From: Takakia lepidozioides
Lineage: Eukaryota > Plantae > Bryophyta
NCBI GenBank assembly: GCA_030704615.1
Contig: CM060731.1
Location: forward strand, 72,044,001-72,108,000
DNA length: 64,000 bases
Direction of reading: 5' to 3'
In this document: in pieces, positions 16,653 through 59,099 of the stretch
Numbering within the stretch: the first letter of the stretch is position 1
Layout of the letters: each line of letters starts with the position of its first letter
The notes under the pieces: generated by a model
The model's database searches: none
What the model saw: the letters and a program-made list of their open reading frames with translations, nothing else
What the model was told of the DNA's origin: nothing
Made by a program: the position numbers and the translations under genes

Positions 16653-16920
16653 TGACAGCACCTAACCTTTACATGCAGTTTAGATCACACATCTGCAGTA
16701 TTCCTACAAACTTATGGACTTTCAATGTCCGCATTACATGTCAAGAGTTATCTTCGGGAGAAATGCCACTAATGGTCCCTGTTGGCCATGAGCATATGAG
16801 AAATGGGCTCTTGGTCAACATTCCTGCACTGCTAGATTTTCTCAAATGTGATGTGAAAGCTAATTCCTTGGTGCAAATCTTCCTGTCATGAGCATCTCTC
16901 TCTCTCTCTCTCTCTCTCTC

Positions 16921-20338: not shown

Positions 20339-20857
20339 TGTCGTGCGCATACATATCGCTACACAACTACATCGCTGTCCAAACCACACCACACATATAT
20401 GCACAATAAAGTAGTCTAGCACAATGATAAAAAACTTGAAAAAGGACACACTCTCAAACACAAAATATGCAATCCCTCAAGATCACTCTTTAAATAGTCG
20501 AGCCAGGGGCACCCCAAGCTATGGGGACTCCACCCCACAACAACCTACACTCCCATCATACACTCAGATCTAAAATGCAGGAGCTCGTCGCGCAGGCTCA
20601 ACTCGAGAGAGATGAGCTGCGCGACTGCCGCTCTCGTGAAGATAAGACGACCAGGTGTCAAACTAAACTTGACACCTGATTTAACACTTGACCTAAATCC
20701 AAGTGTTAAATACAAATAACTAGTTTTATTCTAGCTGTTTTCACACTGTGCTTATTTAACTTGACAGCTGTCGTGCGCATACATATCGCTACACAACTAC
20801 ATCGTCGCTGTCCAAACCACACCACACATATATGCACAATAAAGTAGTCTACCACAA
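20339..20857 (-). repeat. 3' terminal B1-gc-A2-B2 repeat block
   Basis: An ~87-bp B unit is present twice, flanking an ~342-bp A unit that recurs at 31892-32246, 58593-58949 and (reverse) 61287-61541. Confidence 0.9.
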
Positions 20858-21114
20858 TCGCCCCCCTAGCTGGTGGATAGGTCCCTCTACCTCCAGATAG
20901 CTACAAGATGTAATAGCCACAGCCGTACTAAGTCCTCTATCACTGTCCCTATCGTACTCAAACTCTATAGACCAAGAGGCCGGGTACAAGAGTAGCCCCA
21001 TCGTTAGTCGCCGTCTTGCAATCTGTGAACTTGAGCCAGGACTCGTGTGTTCAAGGTCTCCTAGTAGCTGGGCCTTGCGTTTCTTGTTAGCCTCCATGGT
21101 TGTATCCACTCCCA

Positions 21115-22380
21115 CTATCCAATGCAATGTGGACATAACCAATCCCCATCCGGAACCATCTCAAGAGGTGGAGTCAAGCATCCCATATGCCAACCTCTAG
21201 AGCATCGATCACACACCAGCATGGTGGCTGCCCCTTTAGCAGACCCACACAACATGCACCTCAAACCTGCAGATACCACTGCCAGGTTTGGGTCAATCCT
21301 GCCATCGACATTCGGAAGGTGACATGGCGCACAATTACGCACATGGTCCTTCCAAGTTATGCCATCCCGACCCTCCAAGACCAAGACGCCTGAGGGCAAG
21401 ACCTCTCGAACCCTCAAAATAACACGTCCTGCAGTCACATCCAGGGTCGTAGGAGCAGTCTGCTGCAGATAGACATAGTCACCAGGGTTGAATCTCCGAA
21501 CCCCAGGACGATAGCCCCCACCACGTATGGTAGCATACCTCAACGTATCACGGTGTTGTGCAATGGCAAGGTTCTCGAAAGCCATGGGCATGACTCTCTT
21601 GAACAACTCTGCACGCTGCTCACATGCACGTGCCCACACGTCCGGATCGTCAAGGTTAAGAACTGTAGCAGCTTCTCTGCGAATGGATGTAGGCAAATCC
21701 GGCTCTCGGCCAAAGAGAAGAAAGTATGGTGAGAAGGAGGCAAGTGATGCTTGCTTGCTGAACCTGTAGCCCATGGCTAACCAGGGTAACTGAAGGTCCC
21801 AATCTCCTAGGTGTCCCTTCTGCAAGCCATACTTGCGCAAACCCCTCTTTACTGTCTGAACAACTCTCTGCCAAGCCATCGGCCTCAGGATGATCCCGAG
21901 AAGTGGCGGTGGTCTATCAAGGCCTTGTCACACAAAGCCTGAAACTCCCCCAAGAACTCTCTCCCTTGGTCCGTGAGTACCTCAGCTGGAGCACCGAATC
22001 GGCTAAGCACACAATCCAAGAATGCATACGCAGCTCCCTCACTAGCCTTATCAGGCAATGGAACCAATTCAATCCACTTGGAGAAGTGCTCCCACCATCA
22101 CCAACACGTACTTGTTGTGGCGCATGGTCAGTGGCAACGGCCCTGCGAAGTCAACTCCACCTGTAGCCCAATCCCATGATCGGAAGAGGGTGCAATTGTG
22201 GAGTAGGGGCGTTGAATGAAGCACGCACCCTGTCACACACCATGCACCTAGCCACAAATTGTTGCACCTCTGTGTGCATACCACGCCACCAATACTGCCC
22301 CTGCAGTAGACTATGAGTGCGTCGCACCCCAAAATGCCCCAACTCCTCATGGGCATGCCGCACTAACCGTGCCCGCTGTG
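21115..22380 (-). CDS. DDE integrase (HHCC zinc finger, rve core, SH3-like region) with C-terminal PHD finger; frameshifted in this copy
   Basis: HEELGH...CMVC; DFAGP / TDQGREF / GLAERVVQT; RFNPGDYVYL; CMLC...CDRC..GWHMGC...WLCPHC. The same region is a single ORF at 59944-60939. Confidence 0.93.
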
Positions 22381-22859
22381 TTGGGTGAGGCACAATCCTC
22401 ACTCGACCATCCTCCCACACTCGGAGCAGGTGTGTCCCCTCCCACCTGAACCTCTTGGCTCGTTGTAGGATCCGATCCCTCTCCTTGGCAGTCATAGTGG
22501 CTGCCGTGTCTCCACTGCGGAGGTAGTCCAACACAACTGAATCCTCATGTATATCTTTGGCGCCACCCTGCTCATTGCTGGCCTCAGGGTCCTCAGACAC
22601 TTGATCTACAGTCATCCCTGTTGTAGGTCCAACCTGGCCTTCCGCTGCCAAGATACACAGAAATGCAGATGCATGCCATCCGGGCACCATCTCCTCGTCC
22701 GTCTCACCATGCCACCGAGCTCCAGTGTCATCCTGCTGGCTCGTGCATGGATTGCGACTCAACCCATCTGCATTTCGATTGACCAAACCCGGTCGATGCA
22801 CCACCTGAAAGTCATACTCTTGAAGGATGAGTGCCCACCGTGCAAGCTTCCCGTAAGCT

Positions 22860-24081
22860 TGTCTGACTCCATCAACCACTTGAGTGGTTGGTGATCCGTG
22901 ACAAGGGTGAAGAGATTGCCGTATAGATAGCACCTGAAGTGTGCCACGGCCCACACTGCAGCTAAGCATTCTCCCTCATATGAGCTATACTTAGACTCTG
23001 CAGCATTGTTCGAGCGGCTAGCATAAGCCACTACGAACTCTCTTCCCTCATCATCCACCTGTGTGAGCACCGCTCCAAGCCCCAGCATGCTCCAATCTGT
23101 ATGCAGCTGAAAAGGACGCCCCCTGATAGGTCGTCTCAAGATGGGCGCCGAGGTCAACCTCGCCTTGAGCTCTTGAAAAGCTTGTTCTTGCTCATCTTCC
23201 CACTGCCACTGGGTCCACCTTGGTCAGCTTGGTTAGAGCCTTTGCAATGGCACTAAATCCCTTAACAAACCGTCTGTAATAGTTTGCTAACCCCATGAAA
23301 GCTCGAACTCGGCTCACATCCGTGGGGCGTGGAACCTGTGCAATGGACTCTACCTTAGTCTGCTGTACCCCCAATCCTCCAGGATATATCATGTGACCCA
23401 GATACTCAATCTGGTTGTGGAAAAACTTGCACTTGCCCGGATGTAACTTCAATCCGTGCGTCCTCAAGCGCTCAAATACCCCCTGAAGGTGTCTCTCATG
23501 CTCCTCCACCGTAGCACTAAAGATGATGATGTCATCTATGTAGCACCGAGCAAACTCCACCCCTGCTAGAATCCTGTCCATGACTCTTTGAAACTCAGCG
23601 GGAGCGTTTTTAAGCCAAATGGTAAGAACCGCCACTGGTATAGGCAATCCTTCCCGTGCTCATTGATCCCCCAGAATGCCGTCTTTTGCTTATCCGCCTC
23701 CTTGATCGGCAACTGGTGATATCCGGATCGTAAATCCAACGTGCTAAAGACCTTGGAATGCCCAATGGCATCAAAGATCTCCTCTGGTGTTGGCATGGCA
23801 TACCTATCGGACTTGGTCTGACGATTTACAGGCCGGTAATCACCGCACATACGTCTCTCCGTCCAATTGCCATAGACATCCTTCTTAGCTGGCATCACTG
23901 TGGCTGAAGCATACTCTCCACCAGAGAGCTCCACCAAACCTGCCTCCCAGAGATCTTGAGTCCTCATCTGAATCAAAGACCTCTCCATGTCACTGTATCT
24001 ATAGGGTCTCCGAAAGATTGGCGTGTCAGTGGCCAACTCAATACGGATCTCTTGACCCTTCAGTGCTCCCAAGTCCTTCAA
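22860..24081 (-). CDS. Reverse transcriptase + RNase H (Ty3/Gypsy type), several 1-nt frameshifts
   Basis: RRMCGDYRPVN, FSTLDLRSGYHQL, LPFGLKNAPAEFQR, CYIDD, IEYLGH, FMGLANYYRRF; RNase H LHTDWSMLGLGAVL, YSSYEGECLA, TDHQPL. Confidence 0.95.
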
Positions 24082-24529
24082 ACTGAAGGCAAAGCAATTC
24101 CTGTAAGCCCTCAGGAACCGCCGTATACGTCGTCTCTCTCCTCCGGTGACAATGGGTCCAATGTCAGGCTCCCAATTGTCCTCCGTAACTGCAACCTTAA
24201 GTCCAGTGGGCTTAGAGGTAGAGGACGCGTCCCGTGGTTGCTATGCTGCAACCTCTTGAGCAGTACCCCCTTCCTGCTCAGTCAATGACAAGGCCTCATC
24301 CTGCCCCATCATCTCATCATTGAGAACCTCCTCATCCCGAGAAGAATCCCCAACCTCATCCATCACAGCTGCCTTCGCTGCCAACTCCCCTCTGAACCTC
24401 GCACCTCCCACATGTGCCATGGATGTCTACCTCGTGGTCCTCACCGGCTCGCCCCCACTCGCTGCCTGTACCGTCTCGGTAGGCAGAGAGACCGTCAAGG
24501 GAAGTGCACTCCGCACTCTACGTTGCTCA

Positions 24530-25485
24530 GCCATAGCCAAGCTGACAATCCAGGTCAAGCAATTGAGATCCATTGCTTGCCCCAACACCTGACGACGTGA
24601 TGCCTCAGAAAGAGAAGGCACCGCCGTGGTCCCAGTGGAAAACCCCATAGCCCGCTCTCGCTCGTCGGCATTAGGCTCCACTAACTGCTGCAACTGAGCA
24701 TCCCACAGGAGGCCAGGTCCACCATCCCGAAAAGCATGGGATCCTGGGAAGCTGAGCAGTGTAGGTAATGCTGCTCGTGGTTGACCCACCCTGTTGACCA
24801 CTGCCAAAGGCGAACGGTCATCGTGTCTCACACGTTGAGACTGCCTTCCTGTGTCCAAAATGCCATCCACGGTGAGGTGTGCTGGCCGCTGCACCCCATC
24901 AAATGCACGCTTGAGCAGTGCGGGTGGCATCAAGTTAGTCCACCATAGTCGTGGACGATGAGCCCGTGACCCCACTGCAGCTGCATCCAGCAACACTGCT
25001 GACCCAAGCCACGACCGGACTTGATGCACACTGGCCATCACCCTGGCCCGAGAATCACCCATCAGTGGTACATTCTCCAAGATGTATGCTGGAGATACAG
25101 CTTGATGAAGCTGCAAGCAGCGCAAAATCCGCACCATCTCCCAAAACAGACCCGTCCTCGAGTCTCGCAATCCATTGCCATGCCCGGCTGATGAATGCCC
25201 TTGGCAGGGCCAACCTGCCACTATCAGATCAATGAGCCAACCTGCTCCAAATCTTGCGCCCCCAACAAGGAAATGTCTGCTGGCAAGGCTTGTTGGTATC
25301 CACGAACTGCAGACACAGGCAACAAGTCAGGGTACTGCTGTACCAACTGAGCCACATGGCGCAGTGAGACGCGTCGTGCAGTCTCATCCCTCTCCACATA
25401 CAGGTAACGCCTTACCCGCACACCTGCCTGTAGCACAGCAGCCAATCCGGTGCTGATCCCGCCAAACAAGTCCAGAAGGCAAATG
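24530..25485 (-). CDS. DNMT3-like C5-cytosine DNA methyltransferase domain inside pol
   Basis: Motif I LLDLFGGISTG; II YVERD; IV IDLIVAGWPCQG; VI YILENV; VIII AHRPRLWWTNL; IX ERERAMGF; X RRQVLGQAMD. One 1-nt frameshift at ~25235. Confidence 0.9.
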
Positions 25486-25879
25486 CCTTCATCCGGCCGC
25501 TGCCACACAAGAGGTGTGGTGTCCAATGGCGACAACTGAGGTGGCCCTGGTGCAATCACCGCACTCTCCTCCTCTCCTGACGGTACAAAAGCTTCTTCCC
25601 AAGCTTGTTGCACCCGTCCATCAGCAGCTTGCTGCAAATCCTTGCTCGTACCCCACAACGGAGTGTGAGCAACCATGGCAGGCAACTCCGCCGTACCATG
25701 CATGTCATCCTGCTCTGCTGGAGGTGGCACATCCTCTGCATGGGCATTGCCTTCCAGCAACTCTCCAGGCCAACTAACTGCAGCTGTGAAGGCGGCTAGT
25801 GTTGGCATCTTGCCCCGCTGGGCAGCTGCAATACCCCCAATGAATGTCACAGGGAGCTGTGCACGGCGACCATCCCCTG

Positions 25880-26290
25880 ACTGCCATCCAGGCCTGTAGG
25901 ATGCTGACTCCTCCCAGAAATCCAGGGTGAAGCCCATGGGGTATAACACTGCCCCACCAACGAGGACATCGTAAGAGACCGCGTCTGTCACAATGGCCTT
26001 GGCTCGCATCACTGAGCCATCTACAGGATGATCCGGCTGCAGTCTAATAGCCAACTGATGCCGTGTCATGCCCCGAGCCTGCTCTGATCCTCCCAGAGAT
26101 GTCTGTATCTGGAAAGGACAAGGCTCCATATCCGCCTCCATGAGGCCCAAACCTGCAATAGCAGCTCTGCCCAACATCAGTGGCTGAGCTCCTGAGTCCA
26201 ACAAGACCCGCAGTGGCCGGTACTTCTTGCCTGCGGTCCACTCAAAGTGAAAATGCCTCCCTGGTTGTCTAACAAGACAACTCCAGGTGT
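25880..26290 (-). CDS. Retroviral-type aspartic protease
   Basis: VLLDSGAQPLML...YDVLVGGAVL, in frame with DNMT motif I in ORF 25224-26204. Confidence 0.85.
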
Positions 26291-26829
26291 CACCATGGCG
26301 CGCTCAAAGGCTGGCCTAGCTGGCAGCTCCGTCAACTGGCAGCTGCAGCTTGCCAGGGCGCTGCCGTGGCAGTCTTGACCCTCAAATCCGAGGATCCCTC
26401 TGCCACTACACCTTCCACTAACTCCGCAGAAGATGAAGTGACCTCCCACTCTCACAGAGTTTGCTGCTAGTCTGAACACTGCAGCTGGTCTCACCCCGGC
26501 GTCGCAATCATGGTTGCCGAGAACAGTGGGGCTTGACACACAGAGGTGGCTGCCCCCAATAACACACCGCCGCACTAGCCTTGGCAGCAGGAGTCAATGC
26601 TGCACGTGTAGCTCTCCCCAATGGCATAGTAACCTCCGCCTCGGTAACAGTCGGGCGAGAACTAGGTGCCATGGATGGCGTCGACACAGTCTCCGCCAAT
26701 GTGAATGACTGAGGAAGCCTTGCCTGACGGCTTGCCTCCCCACGCTGTGGATCCAATTCCACCTCTGCACCTCGTGGCTCAGGAACTCGTGCTGCTCCTC
26801 GAGTCACGGCTGCAGCAGACTCCACCTGC

Positions 26830-28410
26830 TCTAGTGGTAGTGCTGCTCCGCACATAAATCCCATGCCTCCCATATCTCCTCCCCAGGAGCAGGAGGTGGA
26901 CCATCCCGCCTGGGAGCCGAAGCTATAGCCATGGCAGCGAGCCTCTGCTCTAGCTGCTGAAGCCGGTTGGCCATGCCTTGATCAACGCCCTGACCTCCGC
27001 GTCCTTGGCCATGTTGAGCTTGCCCTTGGCCTGCACCTCGTGCCCGACCACCTCGTCCTCTCTGGGCTGGTCCACCTCGCCCCCGGCCACCATTGTTCCC
27101 TTGGAACTGGCCTGGGCGCAACTCAGGATGCAAGTCATAACACTGGGCATCTCCATGCCCATACTTGCCACAATGCCCACACTGCAACTGTGCAGGCTGT
27201 GCTTGTGCCGGCCTTCTGCCACTCTCTGGGCAATCTCTCTTGACATGGGGTCCTCCACATGTCCAACATATCACCCCTGGTTGCTGTTGGCCTGCAAAAG
27301 ATGCCACGGGCCTCTGCACCTGAGGCCCCCTGTAAGCTCCATGGAACTTGGGCTGGGCAACCTTGCCCCCTGACCACGCTGTTGGGCAGTCCCTTGTGCT
27401 TGTGGGCTGACAGCTGTGCCCCGTACAGGCATGTCCTTGCCAAATCCAATTGTAACAACTCGTCCCACCATGTTGAGCTCAATCCGCTCAGCCAGCAGAA
27501 ACACATCTGCTAATGTGGGTTGGGCTGCTTGTAACAGGGTTGCATCTCGCACCCTTCTCTTGAGCTCCTTGTCCAGAATTCCATACCAAAACTGGATTGC
27601 CTGAGCTTCAGTAACCCCTTGGGTCACACTTATCAAGCGCCTCATACGAGTGTACGCCTCTCGCAGGCTCTCACTGGGTTTGCGCTGGAAGTCTTGCAAA
27701 CTTCGCAGCTTCTCTGTCCGTACACCTTGGTAGTTCCTCCGCAACTCCTGGAAGAACTCCACCACCGGGTTGAATCTAGGCACATGTGTTGTAGTGTGGC
27801 AGGAGGAGTAGTAGCACCTTTGAACTGGTACCACCTGCAGAAGTACCAGCACTACCTGCTCCACTACTAGTGCTGGCAGTGGGAGCTATTGGTACTGATG
27901 CAGCTACTGGTCGCGTCGTGCCTCGAGTAATGGAGATGTAGTCAGGTGACCAATACATCCTCACTCCTCAATCTCTGCTTCATGTCCTCGCCTGAACTCG
28001 TGGTAATCGTCCATAGGCGGGCCTTCCAAATGCTGGAACAGTCCCTTCCACGCCATGAATGGGGTGAATAGATGTGGATTGCGCATCTGCTGCAAATCAC
28101 ACCAGCTGTCGAACTCCTGGATAAAGTCATCCAACTCGATTGTGCCCACAGCTCCAGAGTACCTACGAGGCCCCTTGGTAGCTCCATACATCTCCTCCAT
28201 GTCGTCCCACAACAATGGCGAATGAAAGTGCACACCTGTTGATGAAGCCTCCGAGTCTGTGTCTGACTCTACAGTAATTGAGGGTGGCGGTGAAGGTGGT
28301 CTGAACCGAATACCTCGTCTTGTGAACCCACTCTCACTGTTACTGCCTGTAGCCGTACTCCCCTCCCCTGGGTAACTCCGTAATGACACTCACAATGTGC
28401 ACCTCCTCCA
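26830..28410 (-). CDS. Gag (capsid + two CCHC knuckles), frameshifted
   Basis: FQRKPSESLREAYTRMR (major homology region); CWTCGGPHVKRDC and CGHCGKYGHGDAQC. The capsid part is one ORF in the second copy (53914-55011). Confidence 0.85.
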
Positions 28411-28927
28411 CGTGACACTATAAGGCTCTAGTACTAATCTAATAGTGACACGGGTGGGCACCTGTTGCAGTCTAAGGGTCATATCCCAGTGGCTCAGGGC
28501 ACCTGCACCTGCATCCACCGCAAGAACTCCTATGGTTGGCTGGTCATCAACCCAGCCTCACCATAGAAGAAACACTGGTGGTCTTGCTGGTCATCACTCC
28601 AGCCTCACCACCGACAGCATACTCTAGGATTGACCGGTGATCAAATCCGGCCTAATCCCTATGAAAGCAAGCGCCCACACAAACCAACATGGCGCACAGT
28701 CAAGCATGCAGGTTTGGGGGGATCCAAACACAAGAAATCAAAACATCAACACCCCCACACCAAAATCCAGCTGCAATGCTGATCCTGCAGAATATCCCAG
28801 CCCAAAACCCCGGACTGACTGGCCTCCACCAAGAGAGGCTTTGGCAACTACAAGTACAAGGTAATGAAAATAGTACAGAGATGGAGGGGAAGAATAGAAG
28901 CCCGCCCAAGCAAGATCTAATCCTGAT

Positions 28928-29730
28928 CTATGCTATCAACTTCCAGACTTCTCTCAAAGTGCCTCGCTCTGCTTGATGGTAAGGTGTAGGAGGTATATCT
29001 ATGTCCAGAAACCTGCCACTAACCTTGTCCCAAGCTACAGTAGCTCGCTCTAACCAACCCTCCTCCTCTTTCTGCCAGGTAGAGACAAAGCAACACTCTG
29101 CTATCTCCCGCTCACTGAACACTAAAGAAAACAAAGGTAGGGTCTGATAGTCTCTCAACTCGAAAGCTTTGACGGTTGCGGGTGTCTTCATTGCGAATGA
29201 CTGCATCGCCTTCAAACAGAACAAACTTGTCCTCGCTAATGAACCCCCGCTCATGGTTGCCTTGTGCAGAGCGTGTCCGACTGCAACACTGTCTAATTGC
29301 ACAAACTTGTGCAGCTCCTGCTCCTCTGCTCCAGTACACCACGGCCTTGTGGCTGAACACCTTGGTCCCCGGGGCTGTCTTTGGCTGTGTTCCAAGCCTA
29401 GCTTTCACCCACTTTGGTATTTCACCTACAGCTGCAGAACTGCTGGCTCCAACAGAGTTCTGACTGTCCAAGGCGATATTGAGGCCCTCAATGCCAACTA
29501 CAGCAGTCTGTTGTCTACTGCTAATGCCTGACTCCCAGTATGCAATCAACTCGTCCAACTGTTCTCCACTCAAATCAGTCTGAGTTTCCTTGGGAAACAT
29601 AAATCGTGTCCCCTTGTGTGCACAGACTAAGAGAAGAGACCTGCCCTTCAATTACGTCCTCATTTCCCCCAGCCATGCAAGTACATCCACCAATTTGTCT
29701 CTCATATAGACCAGCACAGGTTCTAGAGAC
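28928..29730 (-). CDS. Unknown ORF (~260 aa after frameshift correction) upstream of gag
   Basis: Overlapping ORFs 29112-29651 and 28928-29395; conserved in the second copy at ~55529-56345. No family recognised. Confidence 0.5.
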
Positions 29731-31891
29731 AGGATTGTGGATCTTTCATGGCACACTCACACTCTAAAAATTCCATAGATTTTTAGCAGAGTCCCAAAAA
29801 CAGAAACCAGGTTTAGATAGGTAGATTTCCCCTTTCTGCAGCTATCCCCCAAAAACTGGGTCAACCAGAGTCCATTTGACAAGATATGATGAATTTGGCT
29901 CCAAATCATTCAAATTAGATTAAAAAGGTTTTTTTTTTTTTTAAAGTTTAAAGTTTAACATTTAAAGTTACACCCAAAATGTCTGGTAACTGGTTCCCGG
30001 TTCCCTAAGTTCTATATGGCATCCTAGGTTCCCTAGCCACGTGCCCTGTAATTTCTAGGATTTCAGTTGTGTTTACAAATGCACCCCCCACAGCTCTTGG
30101 TTACCAGTGACCTGCTCTCCTCCAGTCGAGATCCGTAGCTATGCCGAGCCTCTAATCCTTTGCACCAATATTCCCAACAAAAGCAAGAGCACTTACAATG
30201 CAACCCCGGAAAGCACCAGAACTGACTAGCTTGATCAAGAACGCTTTCAGCCCTTCATGCGTGCTGATTTTTCAAGGTGACAACAACAGATCTGCTATCA
30301 CTGATTGTGTAAGCCTTTCCATGGAGTTGGCACAGGCTGCCCTCAAGTCCTGAATTGTAAACATAGACCAAGCAGGTCGTGTAGTGAGCTGGGCCCCTTC
30401 AGCTCATATCCCACTCATACACCAAGTGTCACCTGGTGAGTCCACAGTCTCCCACTCTCATACTCTCTGCAACAAACACAACCTTGAGGTTTCAATCCTC
30501 CAAAACCTGAGGATCGCCAGCCTGGGAGTTGACACTGTCAGAAAGCGCCCTTCCCTTCCAGCAAATGGCCTAAGATCTGGTGACCTTGTCTATCCTTCCC
30601 TGGACAGCTCTTGCTTGGCCTTTCTCACAGCTGCCTGACATTAGACTACCCTCCAACGAATCGGGTGAAGAGAGATGACCAGTAATAGATTGCCTGGAGG
30701 CTTGCTGCTGCAAAGGGGCTGGCGTAAGTGCAGCAGCTCGTTGTGCTGGCTCAATGTGGAGTTCAGCTGCATTACCCGTGTACTGCCTGGCAGGAAGTTG
30801 CAATGCCCCACATCAAGGTGGCCTGTAAGCGCTGCCACCACGAGCTCCTCTTCAACAGTGCGCGGCAGGTGTCCAACTGCCCTCATGCCTTCTGCACTCC
30901 AGCCATCTCGAGCCAAAAACCCCATTCCACTAGAAAGCAACACTCAACCAACGAAGTGGCAATGGAAGGCTACACAGATGGTACGCCGAGATCAGAGACA
31001 TGCATCTCTCTGACGAACAGTTCTTTGCAACGGAGCGCGCCTACCAAACTCGCTCTGCGCAGAATCTGCCAACGATCAATGACACACATGCCCCAGGCGC
31101 TCCAGCAACACAAACTCCTGTGACAACCAACCCGTCAGACCACCAGATTATCCTCCGCTCTGCAACGCCTACGCCACCTGGTGCTCTTGGCTAACAACCC
31201 AGGTATCAAACGAGCACCGAGTGCGCTCAACAGTGATGCCGGCAGCTCCCACTCTGATCCCAAAAGTATGCTACGCCAGGCCCCTCACAACACATAGACA
31301 CCTCCAGTTCACCGATCACTGCCTTTACTAAGCACGGTAGCAAACTATGGTCTGGACTTCTCAAAATCGAGCTCCTCCACCCTGCGACTGATGGCATTGC
31401 GCTCTTAACAGACAACCGCGCCTTCGTTATGGAGATAGCCTTGGCGATTCCCATTCAGGACAAAGTGGAGAAGGCCCACGACCTACCTGCCTCCTCCACT
31501 ACCTTTCCCTGTACGCTGGCAGCGAGTCTCTACAGAGCACGGTGAATCCAGCAATATGCTTGCAAGCCAAAATGGGCTACCAGCCAATGGCCCTTCTTGA
31601 GCTGCAACACAGATGACCACACAAGTTGGGCACGACTGGCCTACTGGGTGCTCAGCCTGCCCCAGCGCTCAGGCAGCAGAGTCGCCAAGGCCCCCTGCGC
31701 GCACCCGCCACCACAAACAGGGATGACTACACCCTGATCACCACTAACGCCCATGTGTAAACAACAAGCGCAAACCCATGGCAACAGCAGGACTAGATGG
31801 GCTCCTGCCCCAAGTCATATATTTAAATAGTGTTAAAGAACATTGTATCTAGCTTAGCACTAGAAAACTAGATAGGCTCATCTCTCTCGAG

Positions 31892-32246
31892 TGATAAACA
31901 AACTTGAAAAAGGACACGCACTCTCAACACAAGAAATATGCAATCCCTCAAGATCACTCTTTAAGATAATAGTCGAGCCAGGGGCACCCCAAGCTATGGG
32001 GACTCCCCCCCACAACAACCTACACTCCCATCATACACTCAGATCTGAAGAATGCAGGAGCTCGGTCGCGCAGGCTCAACTCGAGAGAGATGAGCTGCGC
32101 GACTGCCGCTCTCGTGAAGATAAGACAGACCAGGTGTCAAAACTAAACTTGACACCTGATTTAACACTTGACCTAAATCCAAGTGTTAAATACAAATAAC
32201 TAGTTTTATTCTAGCTGTTTTCACACTGTGCTTATTTAACTTGACA
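31892..32246 (-). repeat. 5' terminal repeat A1 (LTR-like, TG...CA)
   Basis: Direct repeat of 20425-20766; not followed by a B unit. Confidence 0.9.
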
Positions 32247-32889
32247 AATACAACAACCAAGCATCAATGCAAATGGGATGCATGGTGCACCTTATATAGT
32301 GTTACAATGCACACATTTTTATCATACTTCCGTTGCCAAGGATGGCGGAAGAATGGGAAATGAGGGAGTTGTGGAGTCTTTTGGCTGTGTCCAGGGGGTC
32401 GGCTAGTTCCCTCCAAAGGAAAGTTATGGGTCCTTCCATAAGTAGATGTGCCCAATTCCGCGTTGGGAGACCGTTACTTTTGGGCCCGCACATGGCCTAG
32501 TTTTGTTAATTTTTGGGACAGGTTTAGGTGCACATCTTGTGCACTTAGGGCAACTTAAAGCACATATCAAGGAGGATTATAGGGCATTATAGGATGGACC
32601 TACTGAGCAGTAGTGGGATAATATGTACTTTGATTTTGATAATTCATATATAATACATCCATGATTGGAAAATTATGTGCTTTGCACAAATGATTGTTGC
32701 TTCATTTACTATTCTGCTCATATAATTTTTGTGACACTACACCCTCTGAGGAGTTGCACACTGCTTAAAAGCACACTTCAAGATACCACTATCTTACATT
32801 AATTTTTTTAAGTAAAACTTTGGATTTTAAAAATTGGATGAAAGGATATTGCCTTACCGTATTTTCTAAGTAAAGCTTTTCTAAAATTT

Positions 32890-37067: not shown

Positions 37068-40000
37068 ATGGCAGAGTATGGAGTGGGCTCGGTACCTGCG
37101 GAGATGTCTGCCTTTTCCAGATGTTCTCCAGGAGTTTCGGGGTGTCCTCAAACGTCTCCCGGAGGCTATGCTTCTTGCAAACCTGGGCCAGGGATGAACG
37201 CTTCAAGAAGGTGCGAGCCGTGCTCCCTGTACGGTCCTCTGCATTTTCCCAACAGCATGGTATTGGAAATTGCTTCGAGAAATTGCAAACCGATTGCGGG
37301 CCCATGCAGACCGGTAGCGAAGTATGAGATTTATGAAAAGGGACTTAAGCAAGGAGGTCACCTGGAGGTGCAGAGAAATGAGTGGCCCTGTCCCCCCGTG
37401 GTCACAATCAGCAAGGAAATTGACAACAGAGGAAGCCACAAGACGAATGAAGAGGGGCTTTGGAACGAGTATTTTGTAAACCCGAGTCGATTGTGGGGCA
37501 ATCGAGGCAATAAGGTGCATGCCTGCTACGTTGAAGCAGAGAACAGAATGCAGTGAAATACTTTCTCGCAAATTGCTGAGGGCACCCACTCTCTCGCTCT
37601 CTGCCTTTTTCTTCTCAGGACTGTGCTCTGCCAGGGAAACCACTTTCAAATGTGTAGTTGATCGACTCTTCCATACCCTAATGAGTTGGAGCCTGATCTT
37701 GGGAGGCTTGTGGGTGTTTGCTATGGAAATTCTGGGTTTTTTCAGCCACTTGCGGCGAATCCATGCAATTTTTTACCGGGAGACGGATGCTGAAGGAGGC
37801 AGGATGTAATATGGGTGCAGATCCACATTAGAGGACCTGATTTCAAGCACAAGAGGACCAATGAGGCACTGTGGACTGATAGCTACAAGAAACCTGCATG
37901 GGTTGATGTTCAATTAAAGAAGCTGGAGGTAGCTAGGGGTATGTATCATGAAATGCTTCTAAGACAGGTGATGAATATGGGCTGGCTTTCCCTACATTGG
38001 CACTTTGAAGTCACATGAAAGGACTTTGGCAAGGATTGCTCTTTGGACTGGGTTTTCCTTGGGAGGGCCTAGGATCGTTTCTGGAACCAGTTCAGGATTT
38101 GGTCAGTGTATGTTTCATCTTCTATCAGAGGTCATAACGGGGAGTTTATCATGAGCTTTGTGAGCGAACTTGTCTTGTTGATGAGTATTCTTGACATGTG
38201 ACTGCAACTGGGTTGCAGGCAAATATCCGAATACCCACAATAGTGATGTGGAGAAGCTTGGGAACGGATATTTATCAAACCCTGGTCAATGGTTGGACAA
38301 ACAAGCCAAGAAGGTGACAAGATAACACTACTGGCGAATTAGTGATTGCAGATTTGTGGACTCTCTTTTACCCCTCCTCCTCTCTCTCTCTCTGGATGTT
38401 TGTTTGTTTTGACGTGAACCCCACTTTGCTTCAGGTAAGGTAGTGCGTTGGATTTAGTTGGAGAGTTTGGGGCCTCTCCCTCTTTAGAATATGCCTACGC
38501 GGGCTATTGCCTGCAGCTCCCTGGAGTGTGATCTCTGAATGGTAACAAGCGGACCCTACCGCATGGGGGCAGCCCCTCCGCCCAGATTGGGCAGTTGTAT
38601 GCTCTGTCTCATACTCGGCACTTGGGCTAGGGTTGGTCCTTGTGCTTATACTTATAGCCTGCGAATTCTACCAATACATTACCTCTTATCAATAACAACA
38701 CTCCCCAGGGTGATTCCTGGGAATTGGTTACTTACGCCAAATCTAGGGCTTCATGTGTAGTTTCTGGGGTGAATCCCAGGATGGATGATGTGTCCTTTAA
38801 AACTACATGCTCCAGTTTAGGCTTGGATTATATGGATAATGGTTCATCTCTAGACTTGATAACAGAGGTACTTCGAAGGTTGCAAAGCCCAAGAATGCTA
38901 CTAATAGAGTCTCACATCGATTCAATCTCAAAGAAGTTCGTCCCTTGACCGGCTGGAGAGCAGTCTTAGACATTGGTGATTCAATGAGGCGCTCTAGGAA
39001 GACAACCAAGGGCAGGGACTTCAACTTGAAAGTTTCTAACCGGTTTGATGCACTGGATGAGGCTGATTCCAAGCAGTCAGTGCTGAGCCTGAGCGTCGTG
39101 TGACTGAAGGATTTGGTAGTCTGAATGGTTTACCAATCCTTAAAGTTTACACAAGATGTGCAAAATCTGCACACGGGGTAATTGTCCCCCCTTTGCAGAA
39201 CGGTTGGCCGTCCAGGAGCAACCATAGGCTACCTAGACGACAAACAATTCATATGCAAAGGGCTGGCTTGCGGCTGGGCACTTTCAATTTCTCAGGGCCG
39301 ACTAAGCAAGAGACATGGGAAACTTCGGACAAACTGGTTGGAGTTGTCAATGGTTTTAAATGGATCGGTAAGATGTGCGCTCTTAAGCAGTGAAGGGTCC
39401 TCTGAAGAATGGAAGGACACAGTTGGAAAAACTGTTCCTATGATTCAAGACAAACCTGATGACTTGGAGTATATTTCAAAGGCTTACAGCGCTCCCATTA
39501 GTTCTTCTGAGATTGTGGAAGCAATTGAGCATTTAAACGGATATAAAGCTGGTGGACCTGATGGCATAGTCAACGAGCTTATCAAGCACGGTGGCGATCC
39601 AATGATAGAGGCCCTTGTACTTCTCTTTAACCTTATCTGGAGGACTGAACGATCCCCTTATGCTGATGACAGGGGGTCATTGTCAATCTATACAAGAAGG
39701 TGTTAGAGAAGAACCGGGGAACTACCGAGGCATCACACTCCTCAATGCAGTTGGCAAGATATAAGTACTCGTCTCAAGGTTGATCTGGAATCTAGAGGTT
39801 GTTTCCATGAAGGCCAAGCTGGCTTTCGGCGAAATAGGGGCTGTGTCATATCTTCACTCTAAGCCAGATTATCCAGGGAGGGAAAATAGAAGGGAAACCC
39901 ACTTCTGTATTTTTCTTGGATGTCAAAAAGGGTTATGATGTGGAGAGAAGGACTCTGGTCATGTGGGATCAAGGGAAAGATGTGGAGAGTTGTCCATAAC

Positions 40001-43000
40001 TTGTATGCTCACCCAAAAGTTGTGTCACTGTCAATGGACAGAAGTCTAACTTCTTTGACATAGACCAAGGTGTAGCTCAAGGATGTACTCTCTCCCCTCT
40101 GCTATTCAACGTTTTCATCAATCAACTCCTTGAGGATGTGGAGAGTGAGGGATTTGGGTTAAGGGTGGGTGATGCCACCATACCAGCCCTTCTGTTTGGG
40201 GATTCGCAAGCATAGAGGGGAGACTCCTTCCAATCTCCAGGAGTTGATTGAGCGTGCAAAGGGATACTTTGACCTTTTGGGGCTAGAGGCTAACGTCAGT
40301 GAATGTGCAGTGGTGGCATTCAACGACCGAAGATAGGGAGGAGGTGATCTCAAGTGGCAGTGGGGAAGCCAAGAGATCCCGGTCCTGCCTTCGTACACAT
40401 ACCTCGTTGTTGAGTTTTCCTCCAACTGTTATTGGGATGCACATATTCAGAAAGTTGTTCAAACTGGCAAGCACAAAGCGCTGGGATCAACTCTTGTGGT
40501 AAAACAAACCATGCTTTGTCGCGGTATTAGACCTGCCTTGGAATATGCATCTGCAATATGGGTTGATAACTCCAACCAGGCTAAGTCTCTAGAATCCATT
40601 CAAGTGGGGGTGCTTAAGAAATGCATTTCAGCATGCTCCAAAACAGCCAATGTGGCTGTTCGGGGTGAGTTTCGCATCCCTTAAGCTCCTGACTGGAAAA
40701 AAGTTCAAGGAAGTTTTCTGCCTAACTTCATTTTCATCAGACAATTTCCTGCCAACAGACATGGCTTTGGACACTACAGCCTCTAAGTCAGATTTACCCG
40801 CAGGGTCAAGACTTGCGGGCTAAGATTCAGATCCTTGAGAATCTCTTCTACTCTCTTCCGCCAGGACTTACGCTGTTTGACAGGGCGATCCTGCTTCCAA
40901 GACATAGAGTCGATTGACTTACGGAGGACATCATGGATGACCTCAAGGGTCAACCTCCTCTAGGCACTAGACTGAAATTTAAACTCAGGGCGGGAAGCCT
41001 ACCTTTGAACAGCAAACAGAAGCAGAGAGGAAAGGGAGAGTGCAATTGCCTGTTGTGTGGGCAATCTGAAGACAATATTCCTTTTCTGATTCATTGTCCG
41101 GCGTTCTCTCACCAGAGAGACGCTCTTCAAATCTATCAAGGGAATTGTGCCTGTACCTCTGTTTACCAACTTTGAGAGCCAAAAGCCCAGGCCCTTTTGG
41201 GGCCTAGTTATTGGGCAAACCACACACACCAGGTTGATGCTTGTGTAAAGGAATTTCTAGAGGATCTTTGTTCACCCTTTCTCCTCGAGACTTGTGACTG
41301 GCAGTGCAACCACAGTCAAATGTGTCATCTGTTGCAAGGTAGAGGGTTAGGGGAACAGTTCTGCAGCAAGCTCATGCTGTCTAGCCTGAGGCCGATGCCA
41401 GCACACGTACTTGGATTGTTGTTGGGTGTGAGGGAGCCTTATTTGTGGGGCTGTCTGAAATAGCCTGGTGATTATCCCACCAGATTAGCAGTGCTCATAT
41501 CAACTTTGTTGGGTCATGATGATCTGCTACATATGGGGATGGGATCTATGCATTTTGATAATGGAGGCGGGGATAGCTGAAGGAGGCAGGGAAGGAGTTT
41601 GGGTGCAGATGCATACTAGAGGACCGGAGTTCCAGCAAACCGAGGGACTGTATATTAATAGCCACAAGAAACCTCTGCGGGTATATGGTCAACTAGAAGC
41701 GGCAGTGGCAACACAGTCACTTGAATCAAGCACCTCCACCAGGAGCACTGTTGTTGAAAAAAGACTAAGAAAAGGAGTCCACAAGAAGTCTTCCGGTAAT
41801 TTTGGAGATGTGAGGACACTATGTAAGGCAGGACAATTGGAAAAGTTGCTACACATTTTGAACCAAGGTCGCATGTTGCCAGACTCTGGAACTTATGTCT
41901 GTCTCTTGCAGGAGTGCATCAAGAGGAAAGGTCTAGTAGAGGGAAGGCAGGTACACACCCACATTATCCAAAGTGCATTCAAGCCAAACATCCTTTTAAA
42001 CAACATGCTCATCAATATGTATGCCAAGTGTGGGGGCATTGCAGATGCCCGCATAGTGTTTGACAATATGCCTGAACGAAATATTTTTACATGGAATATA
42101 ATGTTGGCAGGATATGCCAAGGCAAATCCAGCCAAGGAGGCCTTGAAGATCTATGAGCAAATGATACGAGAAGCGGTGAGTCCCAACAGGGTCACATTCC
42201 TTTGTGTTCTCAAGGCGTGTGCCAGCTTGGCAGCCTTGGAGAAGGGCAGAGAGGTCCATGCTGATATGGTCAAAGCTGGAATTGCATCAGATATCATTCT
42301 GGACACTGCCCTTGCTGCCATGTATGCGAAATGTGGGAAAATGAAGGAGGCTCGTCAAGTTTTTGACAGTATGGCTCAGCGAGATGTTGTTTCGTGGAGT
42401 ACCATGATAGCAGGATATTCTCAGCAGGGGTGTGGGAGGGGAGCTTTGGAGATCTATGAGCACATGATACAGGAAGGGGTGATGCCCGACCAAGTTGCAT
42501 TCGTGTGTGCTCTGAATGCATGTGCCAGCCTGGCAGCCCTGGAAAAGGGCAAAGATATCCATGCTGAGATCATCAAAGCTGAAATTGAGCCCAATATCAT
42601 TGTGAAGAATACCCTTGTGGACATGTATGCCAAATGTGGGAACATGAAGGATGCACGTCAAGTATTTGACAGTATGACTCAACGAAATGTAGTTTCCTGG
42701 AATGCACTGATTGGAGGGTATTCTCACAATGGGAGTGATAGGGAGGCTTTGGAGACCTATAACCAAATGGTACACAGAGGGGTGATGCCTGACCAAGTCA
42801 CATTCGTTTGTGTTCTCAATGCATGTGCCAGCCTGGCAGCCCTCCAAAAGGGTAAAGAGATCCATGCTGATGTCATTAAGGCCAGAATTGAACCAACTAT
42901 CATTCTGGAGACTGCACTTGTTGATATGTATGCCAAATGTGGGAACTTACAGGATGCACGTCAAGTGTTTAACACCATGGCTCACCGAAATGTGGTCTCT

Positions 43001-53810: not shown

Positions 53811-53854
53811 CACCTGAAATCTGTCAGCATAAGATTGAACTGGAACCAGGAAAG

Positions 53855-56800
53855 TCGTGGCTCAGGAACTCGTGCTGCTCCTCGAGTCACGGCTGCAGCC
53901 GACTCCACCTACTCTAGTGGTAGTCTCCATGGAACTTGGGTTGGGAAACCTTGCCCCCCTGACCACGCTGTTGGGCAGTCCCTTGTGCCTGTGGGCTGAC
54001 AGCTGTGCCCCGTGCAGACATGTCCTTGCCAAATCCAATTGTAACAACTCGCTCCTCCACCATGTTGAGCTCAATCCGCTCAGCCAGCAGAAACACATCT
54101 GCTAATGTGGGTTGGGCTGCTTGTAACAGGGTTGCATCTCGCACCCTTCTCTTAAGCTCCTTGTCCAGAATTCCATACCAAAACTGGATTGCCTGAGCTT
54201 CAGTAACCCCTTGGGTCACACTTATCAAGCGCCTCATACGAGTGTACGCCTCTCGCAGGCTCTCACTGGGTTTGCGCTGGAAGTCTTGCAAACTTCGCAG
54301 CTTCTCTGTCCATACACCTTGGTAGTTCCTCCGCAACTCCTGGAAGAACTCCACCACCGGGTTGAATCTAGGCACATGTGTTGTAGTTGTGGCAGGAGGA
54401 GTAGTAGCACCTTTTGAACTGGTACCACCTGCAGAAGTACCAGCACTACTTGCTCCACTACTAGTGCTGGCAGTGGGAGCTATTGGTACTGATGTAGCAA
54501 CTGGTCGCGTCGTGCCTCGAGTAATGGAGACGTAGTTAGGTGACCAATACATCCTCCACTCCTCAATCTCTGCATCATGTCCTCGTCTGAACTCGTGGTA
54601 ATCGTCCATAGGCGGGCCTTCCAAATGCTGGAACAGTCCCTTCCACGCCATGAATGGGGTGAATAGCTGTGGATTGCGCATCTGCTGCAAATCACACCAG
54701 CTGTCGAACTCCTGGATAAAGTCATCCAACTCGATTGTGCCCACAGCTCCAGAGTACCTACGAGGCCCCTTGGTAGCTCCATACATCTCCTCCATGTCGT
54801 ACCACAACAATGGCGAATGAAAGTTCACACCTGTTGATGAAGCCTCCGAGTCTGTGTCTGACTCTACAGTAATTGAGGGTGGCGGTGAAGGTGGTCTGAA
54901 CCGAATACCTCGTCTTGTGAACCCACTCTCACTGTTACTACCTGTAGCCGTACTCCCCTCAAAACCCTTGGGTAACTCCGTAATGACACTCACAATGTGC
55001 ACCTCCTCCACGTGACACTATAAGGCTCTAGTACTAATCTAATAGTGACACAGGTGGGCACCTGTTGCAGTTTAAGGGTCATATCCCAATGGCTCAGGGC
55101 ACCTGCACCTGCATCCACCGCAAGAACTCATATGGTTGGCTGGTCATCAACCCAGCCTCACCATAGAAGAAACACTGGTGGTCTTGCTGGTCATCACTCC
55201 AGCCTCACCACCGATAGCATACTCTAGGATTGCCCGGTGATCAAATCCGGCCTAATCCCTATGAAAGCAAGCGCCCACACAAAACCAACACGGCGCACAG
55301 TCAAGCATGCAGGTGTTGGGGGGATCCAAACACAAGAAATCAAAACATCAACACCCCCACACCAAAATCCAGCTGCAATGCTGATCCTGCAGAATAGCCC
55401 AGCCCAAAACCCCGGACTGACTGGCCTCCACCAAGAGAGGCTTTGGCAACTACAAGTACAAGGTAATGAAAATAGTACAGAGATGGAGGGAAGAATAGAA
55501 GCCCGACCAAGCAAGATCTAATCCTGATCTATGCTATCAACTGCCAAACTTCTCTCAAAGTGCCTCGCTCTGCATGATGGTAAGGTGTAGGAGGTATATC
55601 TATGTCCAGAAACCTGCCACTAACCTTGTCCCAAGCTACAGTAGCTCGCTCTAACCAACCCTCCTCCTCTTTCTGCCAGGTAGAGACAAAGCAATACTCC
55701 CCTATCTCCCGCTCACTGAACACTAAAGAAACAAAGGTAGGGTCTGATAGTCTCTCAACTCGAAAGCTTTGAGACGGTTGCGGGTGTCCTCATTGCAAAT
55801 GACTGCATCTCCTTCACGCACAACAAACATGTCATTGCAAATGAACCCCCGCTCGTGGTTGCCATGTGCAGAGCGTGTCCGGCTGCAACGCTGTCTGATT
55901 GCACAAACTTGTGTAGCTCCTGCTCCTCTGCTCCAGTACACCATGGCCTTGTGGCTGAACACCTTAGTACTCGGGGCTGTCTTTGGCTGTGTTCCAAGCC
56001 TAGCTTTCACCCACTTTGGTATTTCATTTACAGCTGCAGAACTGCTGGCTCCAACAGAGTTCTGACTGTCCAAGGCGATATTGAGGCCCTCAACGCCAAC
56101 TACAGCAGTCTGTTGTCTACTGCTAATGCCTGACTCCCAGTATGCAATCAACTCGTCCAACTGTTCTCCACTCAAATCAGTCTGAGTTCCTTACTCAAAT
56201 CAGTTTGAGTTCCTTGGGAAACATAAATCATGTCCCCTTGTGTGCACAGGCTAAGAGAAGAGACATGCCCTTCAATTACGTCCTCATTTCCCCCAGCCAT
56301 ACAAGGAGTACATCCACAGATTTGTCTCTCATATAGACCAGCACAGGTTCTAGAAACAGAATTGTGGATCTTTCATGACACACTCACACTCTAAAAATTC
56401 CATAGATTTTTAGCAGAGTCCTAAAAACAAAAACCAGGTCTAGATAGGTAGATTTCCCTTTTCTGCAGCTATCCCCTCAAAAACTGAGTCAAACAGAGCC
56501 CATTTGACAAAGATATGACCAATTTGGCTCTAAATCATTTAAATTAGATCAAAGGGTTTTTTTGTTTTTTTTTTTTTTTTTTTAAAGTTTTCAAGTTTAA
56601 AATTTAAAGTTACACCCAAAATATCTAGTAACTGGTTCCCGGTTCCCTAAGTTCTATATGGTTTCCTAGGTTCCCTGGCCACGTGCCTGCTGTTCCCCCC
56701 ATTTCATTTGAGTTCAACAGCGTTGTGAGATCCGAAACTTCAAGTAGAGTGAGGCTGGAGATTTCATCAACTAGCCTGTGAATCTTCTCCGATGGCGGGG

Positions 56801-58949
56801 GCATCTGAGCTCTGGCGATGGCGGATCTGCTCCTGCGCTATTGCTCCTCTTCCTCGAACTGGGCGTGCACGCTGCGGCTGAAGATGGAGCTTGCAACAGT
56901 GAGCGGCAGCAGGACGAGGCAAGAACTGACTCGTAGCAGGGAGCTCCCTTGCTCTACAATGGGCCCCATCTTCTTTGCCTCCCGCTCTTTTCATGTGCCT
57001 GCTCACCTCCCTCTCAGTGCAGCATTCCTTCTAATGCCACCCGCAGTGCTCGCAATTTCATGTTGCCACCAATACAGGGAAGTGCCACCAATCCCGAGCT
57101 TATTCTGTCTTCCTTGAAAGCCTGTTGGCCTATCTCAATCTTCTCATGTACTTAGCTTTTCTATCACATGTACTTGCCAGTTCACCTCCATGGCTGTGAC
57201 CCTGCTCTCAAACAGTATAAACATACATAAACTGTGCATCACACAGGCAGTCCTAAGGCTCTGTATTCTCTACACCTTTTAGCCTGTGACCACCTTCTTG
57301 GCAACAATCCAGGCTCTAGGATCTAACCTGCAACATGAGTGTGCAAAAGAACCGTTGTGATGCACACTCATCCAAAGAGATCTGCTCCAGCTCAATACTC
57401 CATGCCCATTTGCTCTCACTCCTTACGGGCCGTCAAGTGGTCTTGGATAGAAAACTCCCAGCTATCAAGACTTTATGGAGTGGTATGAAATGCGACAGTC
57501 ACCCAGTATGACTGTGTTGAGCGCACCGATACATTAAAACGCTTACTGAAATGCTGCTTTTCGCTTTTTGGCAGCCTTCTTGGCCATTCGAGAACCTTTG
57601 TCTGCAAGAAGAATGGAAGCAAACACATGTGTGTCTGCTCTTCACCCTCTCCAAGATCTGCCACATGAAAGCCTTGTTTTACCAGACCTGTGTAGGGAGG
57701 CTCTTGCAAGGCCTGCATCCCTCAAGACTTCCTCTATTGCAACATCATCATTCCATGCCACCTCAGGAATCACTTTGTTAAAATGACGTTGAATCTTCGT
57801 GACGTTTCGCTCATCTTGATCTATGAGCAACAAATTGAAAGCAACACCTTTGCGACCAAACCGCCCGCTTCGACCGATTCGGTGCAGATATGTCTCAGGG
57901 AGCTCTGTTCCCGAAAGCTTGACTGAACGAGGGAAAGTGGTCCGGTGCAGAATCTCAGCGACATCAGCATTCCTCAGAAGTTCGTCTCCTTCATTGTGAC
58001 CGGAAGTCAAATGCGTTCACATTGGCGAAGGTAACTGGTGCCTTGAACTTCCAACCCTGCAGCAAATGGCCATTGCGAGAGACAGCAAACAATGCAGACT
58101 TGCTGCCCTGCAAATTGGAACTAACTTAAGCCGGGAGAGACCTAATATTGCATGGAACGGAAGCCAGTCCCACTCATGCTGGCGGAATATCGCTGGTCAC
58201 CAAATCCCAGCCAGCGCGGGCCCTTCGCCGGGAGAGAGCAGGAGTAGCTTTAGATGAAGAAAGCAGTGTCTCGTTATCCCAGATATGAGAGAAATGGCTA
58301 ATGTTGGCCGCCTCCCATGGGCCCATCGCGCAGGCAGACAGTTCAGTGGTCACTGCAAGACTCCATCACCAAGACCTTGTGGCCAACTATCAAAGTCTCC
58401 AACCTCCACACCTCTTGTTTTTATTTTATTTTTAAAACTCACGAGCAGAGACAACAACTAGATCTGCGCGCACAGCCCATGGCAACAGCAGGGCCAGATG
58501 GACTCCTGCCCCAAGATGTATATTATAATAGTGCTAAAAAAACATTGTATCTAGCTTAGCACTAAAAACTAGGTAGCATCATCTCTCTCGAGTGATAAGA
58601 AAACTAGAAAAACACACTGTTTACACAAGAAAACAACATGAATCCAACAGCATCACTCTTTAAGATAATAGTCGAGCCAGGGGCACCCCAAGCTATGGGG
58701 ACTCCACCCCACAACAACCTACACTCTCATCATAAGCACACTCAGATCTGAAGCGATGAAGGAGCTCGGTCGCGCAGGCTCAACTCGAGAGAGATGAGCT
58801 GCGCGACTGCCGCTCTCGTGAAGATAAGACGGACCAGGTGTCAAACTAAACTTGACACCTGATTTAACACTTGACCTAAATCCAAGTGTTAAATACAAAT
58901 AACTAGTTTTATTCTAACTGTTTTCACACTGTGCTTATTTAACTTGACA
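53855..58949 (-). mobile_element. 5' half of a second copy of the split-repeat element (A1, cargo slot, unknown ORF, gag)
   Basis: Collinear and highly similar to 26772-32246 except the cargo slot and a ~495-bp deletion at 53924; A1 at 58593-58949. Confidence 0.9.
57704..57900 (-). pseudogene. Captured C-terminal fragment of DEAD-box helicase DBP5/DDX19 (plant RH38/LOS4)
   Basis: [24 protein letters not shown]...[28 protein letters not shown]: motif VI plus an RH38-like tail. Confidence 0.75.
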
Positions 58950-59099
58950 GGCCGAATAATATATTTGTTTTTCCTGACACATTGCATTAAAGTATTGTTT
59001 TTTATTGTTTTTTATTTTCGAAATTTGTACTTCTGCTCATGAAAACCGATTGTCTTACTACTCCGCTCATGCCGCTCATGCTCATAAAATAGCAAACCT

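Follow-up and report, generated by a model that had tools for sequence, protein, structure and literature searches.

Two copies of one retrotransposon family lie in the window (the whole 64,000-nt stretch of DNA analysed here), and their leaders raise a question: how did a single position in an element come to hold two different sequences of nearly the same length (1,722 bp in copy 1; 1,780 bp in copy 2)? Self-alignment pairs 27337-30045 with 53925-56687 (94.7%) and 31768-32246 with 58468-58949 (89.6%), and the aligned stretches end where the first-pass annotation had placed the limits of the intervening segments, hereafter the slots, whose near-equal length it had also reported correctly. That annotation went on to propose recurrent capture of host RNA at a fixed site under a length constraint, with the slot exchanged as a cassette and with a possible link to silencing through the element's own DNMT.

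Copy 1 is a complete Ty3/Gypsy-DNMT element with the repeat layout A-coding-B-A-B, flanked by a 4-bp TSD, AATA, at 20335-20338 and 32247-32250 (Table 1). A Pfam search gave the order gag, protease, C-5 DNA methylase, RT, RNase H, integrase, PHD, with gag and the integrase core scored in copy-2 frames. Both rve and H2C2 integrase domains were found, a DDE integrase and a PPT are present, and there was no match to a tyrosine recombinase in this search. The copy-1 DNMT (window 23569-25490; PF00145, E = 2.6e-12) lies between protease and RT and keeps the motifs DLFGG, PCQ and ENV, with a frame break near 25230 as assembled. Either decay of copy 1 or errors in the assembly would account for its frame changes; at many window positions every sequencing run compared disagrees with the assembled letter. 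Because the primer site directly follows A1, the slot lies between the primer site and gag. This primer site is complementary to a stretch of A1, a self-priming-like arrangement that we take to resemble Tf1, and the A-to-primer segment folds with z = -7.0 in copy 1 and -4.8 in copy 2. The joint between B1 and A2 is the palindrome GACAGCTGTC. Copy 2 is broken and partly inverted, and the partial A of one of its rearranged pieces (59943-61541) is identical to copy-2 A1 at 255/256 positions. Downstream of the slot, the annotated sense A-tract is present in both copies, with its copy-1 start at 29929 rather than 29928. Further towards gag, the broken ORF-like stretch is very deep in DNA runs and may be either an older, fixed cargo or an extra ORF; a homologue search with it was negative, tblastx against 80 metagenome loci gave no match, and the Atlas leads for it stood at 0.90 or less and carried no family.

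Table 1. Coordinates of the two element copies, their slots and the pieces recognised within the slots (window positions).
Feature	Position	Strand	Remarks
Copy 1, complete Ty3/Gypsy-DNMT element	20339..32246	-	11,908 bp; TGTC...GACA ends
Copy-1 3' end	20339..20870	-	PPT, B1 (20856-20769), GC, A2 (20766-20425), T, B2 (20423-20339)
Copy-1 coding region, gag-PR-DNMT-RT-RH-INT-PHD	21115..28200	-	about ten frame changes as assembled
ORF-like stretch, broken, in both copies	28930..29900	-	~300 codons
Copy-1 sense A-run	29929..29942	-	14 nt
Spacer between slot 1 and A-run, conserved	29943..30045	-	
Slot 1	30046..31767	-	patchwork
Probable exon, intron ends kept	30197..30466	-, sense	270 nt; T-rich CAG acceptor ending 30467; GTAAGT donor 30196
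Slot-1 piece in 303-nt X6 contig (RNA guessed)	30524..30727	-	contig continues differently
Slot-1 piece in 307-nt X6 contig (RNA guessed)	30780..30907	-	other sequence on both sides there
Conserved 5' flank of slot	31768..31875	-	31768-31891 diverged 11% from copy 2
Primer-site position, copy 1	31876..31891	-	16 nt complementary to 32080-32095 inside A1; self-priming-like
Repeat A1, copy-1 5' end	31892..32246	-	4 substitutions vs A2 in 342 aligned columns
Inverted repeats joining slot ends	30070-30081/31752-31763; 56686-56697/58481-58492		P 0.018, 0.016 vs random window pairs, post hoc
Copy 2, 5' part	53925..58949	-	A1, primer site, slot 2, leader, gag start; cut in gag
Copy-2 sense A-run	56557..56583	-	pure run 56565-56583
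Slot 2	56688..58467	-	mosaic of at least 4 host sequences
Mitochondrial rpL12 5' region	56713..57131	-, sense to element	Pfam 1.6e-5; PDB mitochondrial L12 0.0026
DDX19/Dbp5-type helicase C-terminal coding end + 3'UTR	57126..57897	-, sense to element	DDX19/DDX25 1e-12
Third transcript piece	57891..58021	.	X6 2,154-nt and X9 1,678-nt contigs; RNA guessed
Fourth transcript piece	58184..58306	.	X6 686-nt and X9 151-nt contigs; RNA guessed
Copy 2, rearranged 3' piece INT-PHD-PPT-B-partial A	59943-61541	+	
Copy 2, rearranged 3' piece RH-INT	61542-62802	-	

We then compared the two slots with each other and confirmed that they are unrelated at the DNA level: the best blastn match had E = 0.11, the local score of 29 fell within the range of 40 shuffles (mean 26.4, maximum 33) and the global score of -291 stood beside a shuffled value of -294. 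Neither slot occurs a second time within the window. The LTR-side boundary of the slot is fuzzy because weak slot-to-slot similarity continues for ~25 nt inside it. Base composition was of little help: CpG o/e is 0.50 and 0.54 in the slots and 0.51 in gag-pol, uninformative on donors, and sense T+G content gave no clean split between cargo and native leader.

To this comparison we added contigs of public runs, aligned to the window, with contig depth summed (a quantity that is not a copy number). X5 is a DNA-like run from another study; X6 and X9 are runs of separate studies whose RNA nature is guessed, and the lack of any X9 depth on the element spacer, where X1 reaches ~20,000, fits RNA. Contigs of X5 span the boundaries 30045, 56687 and 58468 and the internal junctions 57891-57897 and 58017-58021. 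Since these DNA-like contigs bridge boundaries and joins alike, the slots are not assembly artefacts and the mosaic in slot 2 is real DNA.

The proposal that pieces of host RNA were captured was supported by matches between slot 2 and transcript-like contigs. In each of X6 and X9 (RNA guessed), four separate contigs match this slot, the first at 56713-56800 together with 56905-57131 and the others at the helicase, third and fourth pieces of Table 1; they differ from the slot at 0-3 to 14 positions per piece, and those for the first three pieces continue into sequence other than the slot. Both parts of the rpL12 piece are held in one 1,888-nt X9 contig, with a gap of 166 nt between them vs 104 nt in the slot, a mismatch without a ready explanation, as X6 also has a path that contains the slot's 104 nt. 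The helicase, called LOS4 in plants, is represented in X9 by a 1,944-nt contig, relative to which slot 2 has two internal deletions. One of them, in the 3'UTR, extends from one copy to the other of a repeat of 89 nt that the donor contig has twice, the outcome that copy choice would predict; the other removes 88 nt at a 3-nt overlap. Microhomology was scored at three joins between pieces and at one internal deletion, and the pieces overlap by 6 nt (57126-57131), 7 nt (57891-57897) and 5 nt (58017-58021, DNA contig), for which the chance per join is 1.3e-3, 3.8e-4 and 4.6e-3, respectively. Of the X5 DNA contigs, two break off at 57846, directly behind G|GT, a point that the slot and the RNA-like contigs continue across, and low-depth X5 contigs near it have the donor allele at 57867. 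An intron was probably lost at 57846, judging from a single site in a plant metagenome whose contigs there are of low depth. In X1, donor-allele contigs had a depth of 79-86, and slot-allele contigs, at 361-693 for slot 2 and 282-364 for the slot-1 core, were 4-9 times deeper; these depths, which are not copy counts, suggest a low-copy donor of the slot-2 cargo and several copies of each cargo.

The view that both slots are coding-like patchworks thus held for slot 2, with its rpL12 and DDX19 pieces, and only partly for slot 1. Two X6 contigs share pieces of slot 1 and then diverge from it, which makes slot 1 a patchwork as well. Splice signals delimit a probable exon with its intron ends retained, as would be left by unspliced RNA: neither slot has a strong T-rich acceptor other than the one ending at 30467, where two X6 contigs break, and the sole GTAAGT has the break of a low-depth X1 contig next to it, at 30198. 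As this probable exon seems to retain its splice sites, the cargo is unlikely to be spliced mRNA throughout, and this piece may have been copied at the DNA level. Sense orientation and intron loss, the signs of RNA capture proposed as checks, gave a mixed picture: the three readable pieces (rpL12, DDX19 and the splice-site-flanked exon) are sense in 3/3 cases, too few for a bias test, and intron loss is probable at 57846, but the slot-1 exon seems to keep its intron ends. At 30467 we also observed that two X6 contigs with different upstream letters meet at the cargo acceptor and that one extends into the element spacer; this acceptor may act as a splice site for element or read-in transcripts. 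The contig that connects slot 1 to the spacer is a single one, and contigs reveal no start, strand or level. X6 has no contig cover on 30915-31823, and no joint that skips either slot was among those listed; contigs do not demonstrate absence, and neither point carries weight.

No donor of slot 1 emerged from the searches made. In six frames the one Pfam result was a zinc ribbon on the + strand, below threshold; PDB in 3/6 frames returned none (best E 0.1), and a word search with the + ORF 31258-31542 returned none. The likeliest frame of the 270-nt exon was not assigned to a gene by Pfam or PDB, the two searched. A full HMMER search with one minus frame of 30011-30943 gave no donor; its sole match, P0091, was ruled out as a homologue, being the sum of weak matches to a repeat.

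The contigs also bear on how the slots change. Contigs that contain the flanks depart into a third sequence at 56721 (X5) and 58468 (X1), and slot-1-type ends are found at 56687 and 58476. Each boundary of slot 2 is thus a place where three different sequences come together within about 10-35 nt. With third junction variants at both of these boundaries, the notion of only two fixed variants is refuted there. Further contig breaks lie at 58017, 58217 and 58330 in slot 2 and at 30467 in slot 1; some internal breakpoints may be donor loci and not element variants. The 3' 450 nt of slot 1 are deeper than its core in X1 and X2. Exchange of a whole cassette, as first envisaged, is not supported by these observations, since there are many points inside the slots where contigs depart, and slot 1 has a 3' part that occurs more widely than its core; capture of host RNA pieces stands, and the nested pattern of breakpoints indicates that turnover is piecemeal and not a swap of whole cassettes. 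Loose contig ends at 29835, 29849-29855 and 31839 were considered as cargo joins and rejected. They are diverged versions of the flanks, and the drop in depth there therefore does not count variants.

We consider it probable that the slots were filled through capture of host RNA by reverse-transcriptase template switching, with the products surviving in a tolerant zone of the leader. Reverse transcriptase would use short words common to both to jump between the element's RNA and host RNAs packaged with it, the templates being spliced mRNA with some unspliced RNA. Switches would happen along the whole RNA, and spreading copies would keep only those that spare gag-pol and the primer site; the site would appear fixed because survival is confined to places where both stay unbroken. 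Every new switch out and back would replace or delete part of an older cargo, and through such repeated partial replacement the content would turn over piecemeal and the length drift slowly. Recombination between co-packaged element RNAs would amplify cargo lineages and move them to young gag-pol backbones. The two copies differ little in pol (1-2%) and gag (0.4-3%), more in the leader (3-9%) and most immediately behind the primer site (11%), and this rise in divergence towards the slot fits old cargo lineages recombined onto younger backbones. The cargo itself is most likely passive, and nothing observed gives the element DNMT a way to find donor genes.

Near-equal slot lengths could also reflect a structured cargo site, with paired flanks that close a loop of ~1.7 kb, fix the switch ends and hold the length for packaging or leader folding. 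We think such a site unlikely. The slot lengths differ by no more than 3.3%, a closeness with a 3-7% chance under three simple ad hoc nulls, and with n = 2 the annotated length constraint is only suggestive. The convergence of three sequences near the same boundary on each side of slot 2, together with, as a post hoc lead, an 11-of-12-nt inverted repeat that links the ends of each slot in letters that differ between slots, fits a structured site better than pure tolerance. However, the conserved flanks alone are no more prone to fold or to pair with each other than shuffled sequence (z -0.3 to +1.0; flank duplex -41.9 vs -41.5 and -47.8 vs -41.1 +/- 4.8), and folding of the slots gave no signal, with 1/22 windows at z -3.2. 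In addition, the leader of relatives is about 2.5 kb shorter, many breakpoints fall inside the slots, and common descent with roughly length-neutral patches also keeps lengths similar. The leader could even be a built-in cargo loop, with paired flanks and 1.7 kb rewritten repeatedly from the host transcriptome in coding-competent elements, the changing host library beside the element's own DNMT and PHD finger being used to blunt or redirect silencing. This is a long shot by our estimate; were it true, siRNAs against the element could, for instance, come at a cost to rpL12, DDX19 and other housekeeping genes.

Microhomology joins are also produced by DNA repair, and the slots might have been filled at the DNA level, with filler taken from other loci during break repair of genomic or extrachromosomal element DNA. 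The slot-1 exon with both splice sites would suit this origin, yet the slot-2 pieces match RNA-like contigs, and among them are a 3'UTR and a probable exon-exon join; filler from repair would be expected to come largely from repeats and from either strand, whereas all three readable pieces are sense; filling at the DNA level is accordingly very unlikely. The downstream A-run and the short inverted repeat near the slot-1 ends could instead point to insertions at one site, either nested transposons or LINE-made retrocopies. This reading is already largely refuted and, in our assessment, hardly credible. The best TSD at the slots was 4-5 nt over 625 boundary shifts, not beyond chance, the best TIR candidates matched at 9-10 of 15 positions and none was accepted, and no transposase or RT was found inside slot 1 in Pfam (six frames). 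Between the cargo and the A-run both copies have a common spacer of 100 nt, and the cargo piece beside that spacer is the 5' part of rpL12 and not an mRNA end; at this distance of ~100 nt, the shared A-run is no tail belonging to the present cargo.

We also compared the element with its relatives. A search with the DNMT gave 89 related proteins, the best named relatives being liverwort proteins (Calypogeia fissa, Marchantia) at 66-71% among the top six matches, and the DNMT alignment retrieved 80 metagenome loci. Leaders were compared in the six close loci that have a gag start and upstream DNA (L001, L006, L009, L012, L022, L023), L022 and L023 being one locus. These leaders, which come from another host, are colinear, 1.1 kb long and 86-92% alike between distinct loci, and none of the six holds a cargo or variable slot. 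From A to gag they measure 1,432-1,492 nt in the five loci having A, vs about 4,050 nt in the window element. L023 is complete: it has the A...B-A-B layout and a 4-bp TSD, and its self-complementary primer site, 17 nt long, differs in sequence from that of the window element. Because the leaders of relatives are free of cargo, the cargo was added in the window family and is not required by the lineage.

Several features of the repeats and of the DNMT recur or shift among these relatives. The primer site is self-complementary in both families in letters that differ (window 31876-31891 with 32080-32095; L023:2017 with 1842). The B/A joint GACAGCTGTC lies at window 20764-20773 and 61282-61291 and was found in 8/52 element-like loci (L001-L052; L001:14348, L023:10347, L017, L027, L034, L038, L047 and L052), with 0.32 expected, and in 0/28 others. 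The PPT and the primer site define a normal B+A LTR, and the integrated ends are cut at the internal palindrome with loss of GC, a pattern that suggests integration from a two-LTR circle. L009:11523-11650 and L010:6934-7060 stop after B with no A-B behind; these ends would be a one-LTR-circle product, a result of B-copy recombination or an assembly collapse. In the more distant relatives P0059 and P0060 the DNMT lies between RNase H and integrase and not between protease and RT, and the domain therefore occupies two positions within one lineage.

DIRS and Ngaro elements carry a tyrosine recombinase instead of a DDE integrase and are not known to make a TSD. The window element differs from them in its DDE integrase, PPT, 4-bp TSD and lack of a tyrosine recombinase match, and shares with them the A...B-A-B layout (PMC5890265, in the part of that text available). 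It is also similar to KnitGypsy-Dnmt3 of Klebsormidium nitens, which has a DNMT in a Gypsy Pol and A-coding-B-A-B repeats; the window element resides in a land plant, judging by the PLS-type PPR gene with E motif in the window, and no leader cargo is mentioned for KnitGypsy-Dnmt3 in the accessible portion of its description (PMC5890265). Streptophyte DNMT3-bearing retrotransposons are likewise mentioned without leader cargo in excerpts of two other sources (bioRxiv 10.64898/2026.05.21.726589; PMC12344493).

Capture itself has clear precedents. According to the sections available, LTR-mediated retroposition yields partial copies from several parents with a median of 6 bp of microsimilarity and secondary spread (Tan et al., 2016, PMC5131818), and the window element resembles this in being an LTR element with partial gene pieces, several parents and microsimilarity joins. 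The same sections describe one recurrent switch-back site in Drosophila, where the cargo replaced parts of the ORFs in all cases (PMC5131818); in contrast, the window element keeps gag-pol and has its cargo in the stretch from primer site to gag, where more than one cargo lineage exists side by side. Maize Bs1 is similar as a template-switch chimera (PMC5131818, PMC13317346, both in extract), and capture of gene fragments by TEs is described as common in vascular plants in the portion seen of a further paper (PMC13477047). Titles and abstract openings returned by literature searches contained no recurrently rewritten cargo zone between primer site and gag; subscription papers and supplements may hold one. 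The process is known, and it is the site, repeatedly rewritten, that is unusual.

Most known cases in which LTR elements captured genes are one-off chimeras whose coding capacity was lost. A high-copy family with gag-pol retained and host RNA sampled repeatedly at one site would supply many dated, independent switches, which could measure the RNAs entering particles (spliced or not, their strand and their genes), the packaging length limit and any protection of the TE from silencing by its cargo. The self-encoded DNMT opens a question of epigenetic conflict in a non-seed-plant lineage, in which the link to donor genes is conjecture. Retrotransposon DNMTs are reported to carry out de novo CG methylation (de Mendoza, 2018, PMC5890265, as excerpted), and captured fragments in silenced maize TEs can direct siRNAs to donor genes, according to the extract of Muyle et al. 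(bioRxiv 10.1101/777037). That route uses host siRNAs and needs no TE-encoded DNMT, and it is the known way in which the window cargo could touch donor methylation.

Other features surround the two copies. The start of a second, unrelated Gypsy element (gag-protease-RT; 51631-53855, +) adjoins the cut end of copy 2, and a protease-like fragment (59088-59837, +) lies between the copy-2 pieces. Dispersed repeats at 16864-17800 and 39182-41263 are LINE-like by eye. The window also holds a GET3/ArsA exon (13570-13899, +) and a PLS-type PPR gene with an E motif (41489-43831, +).
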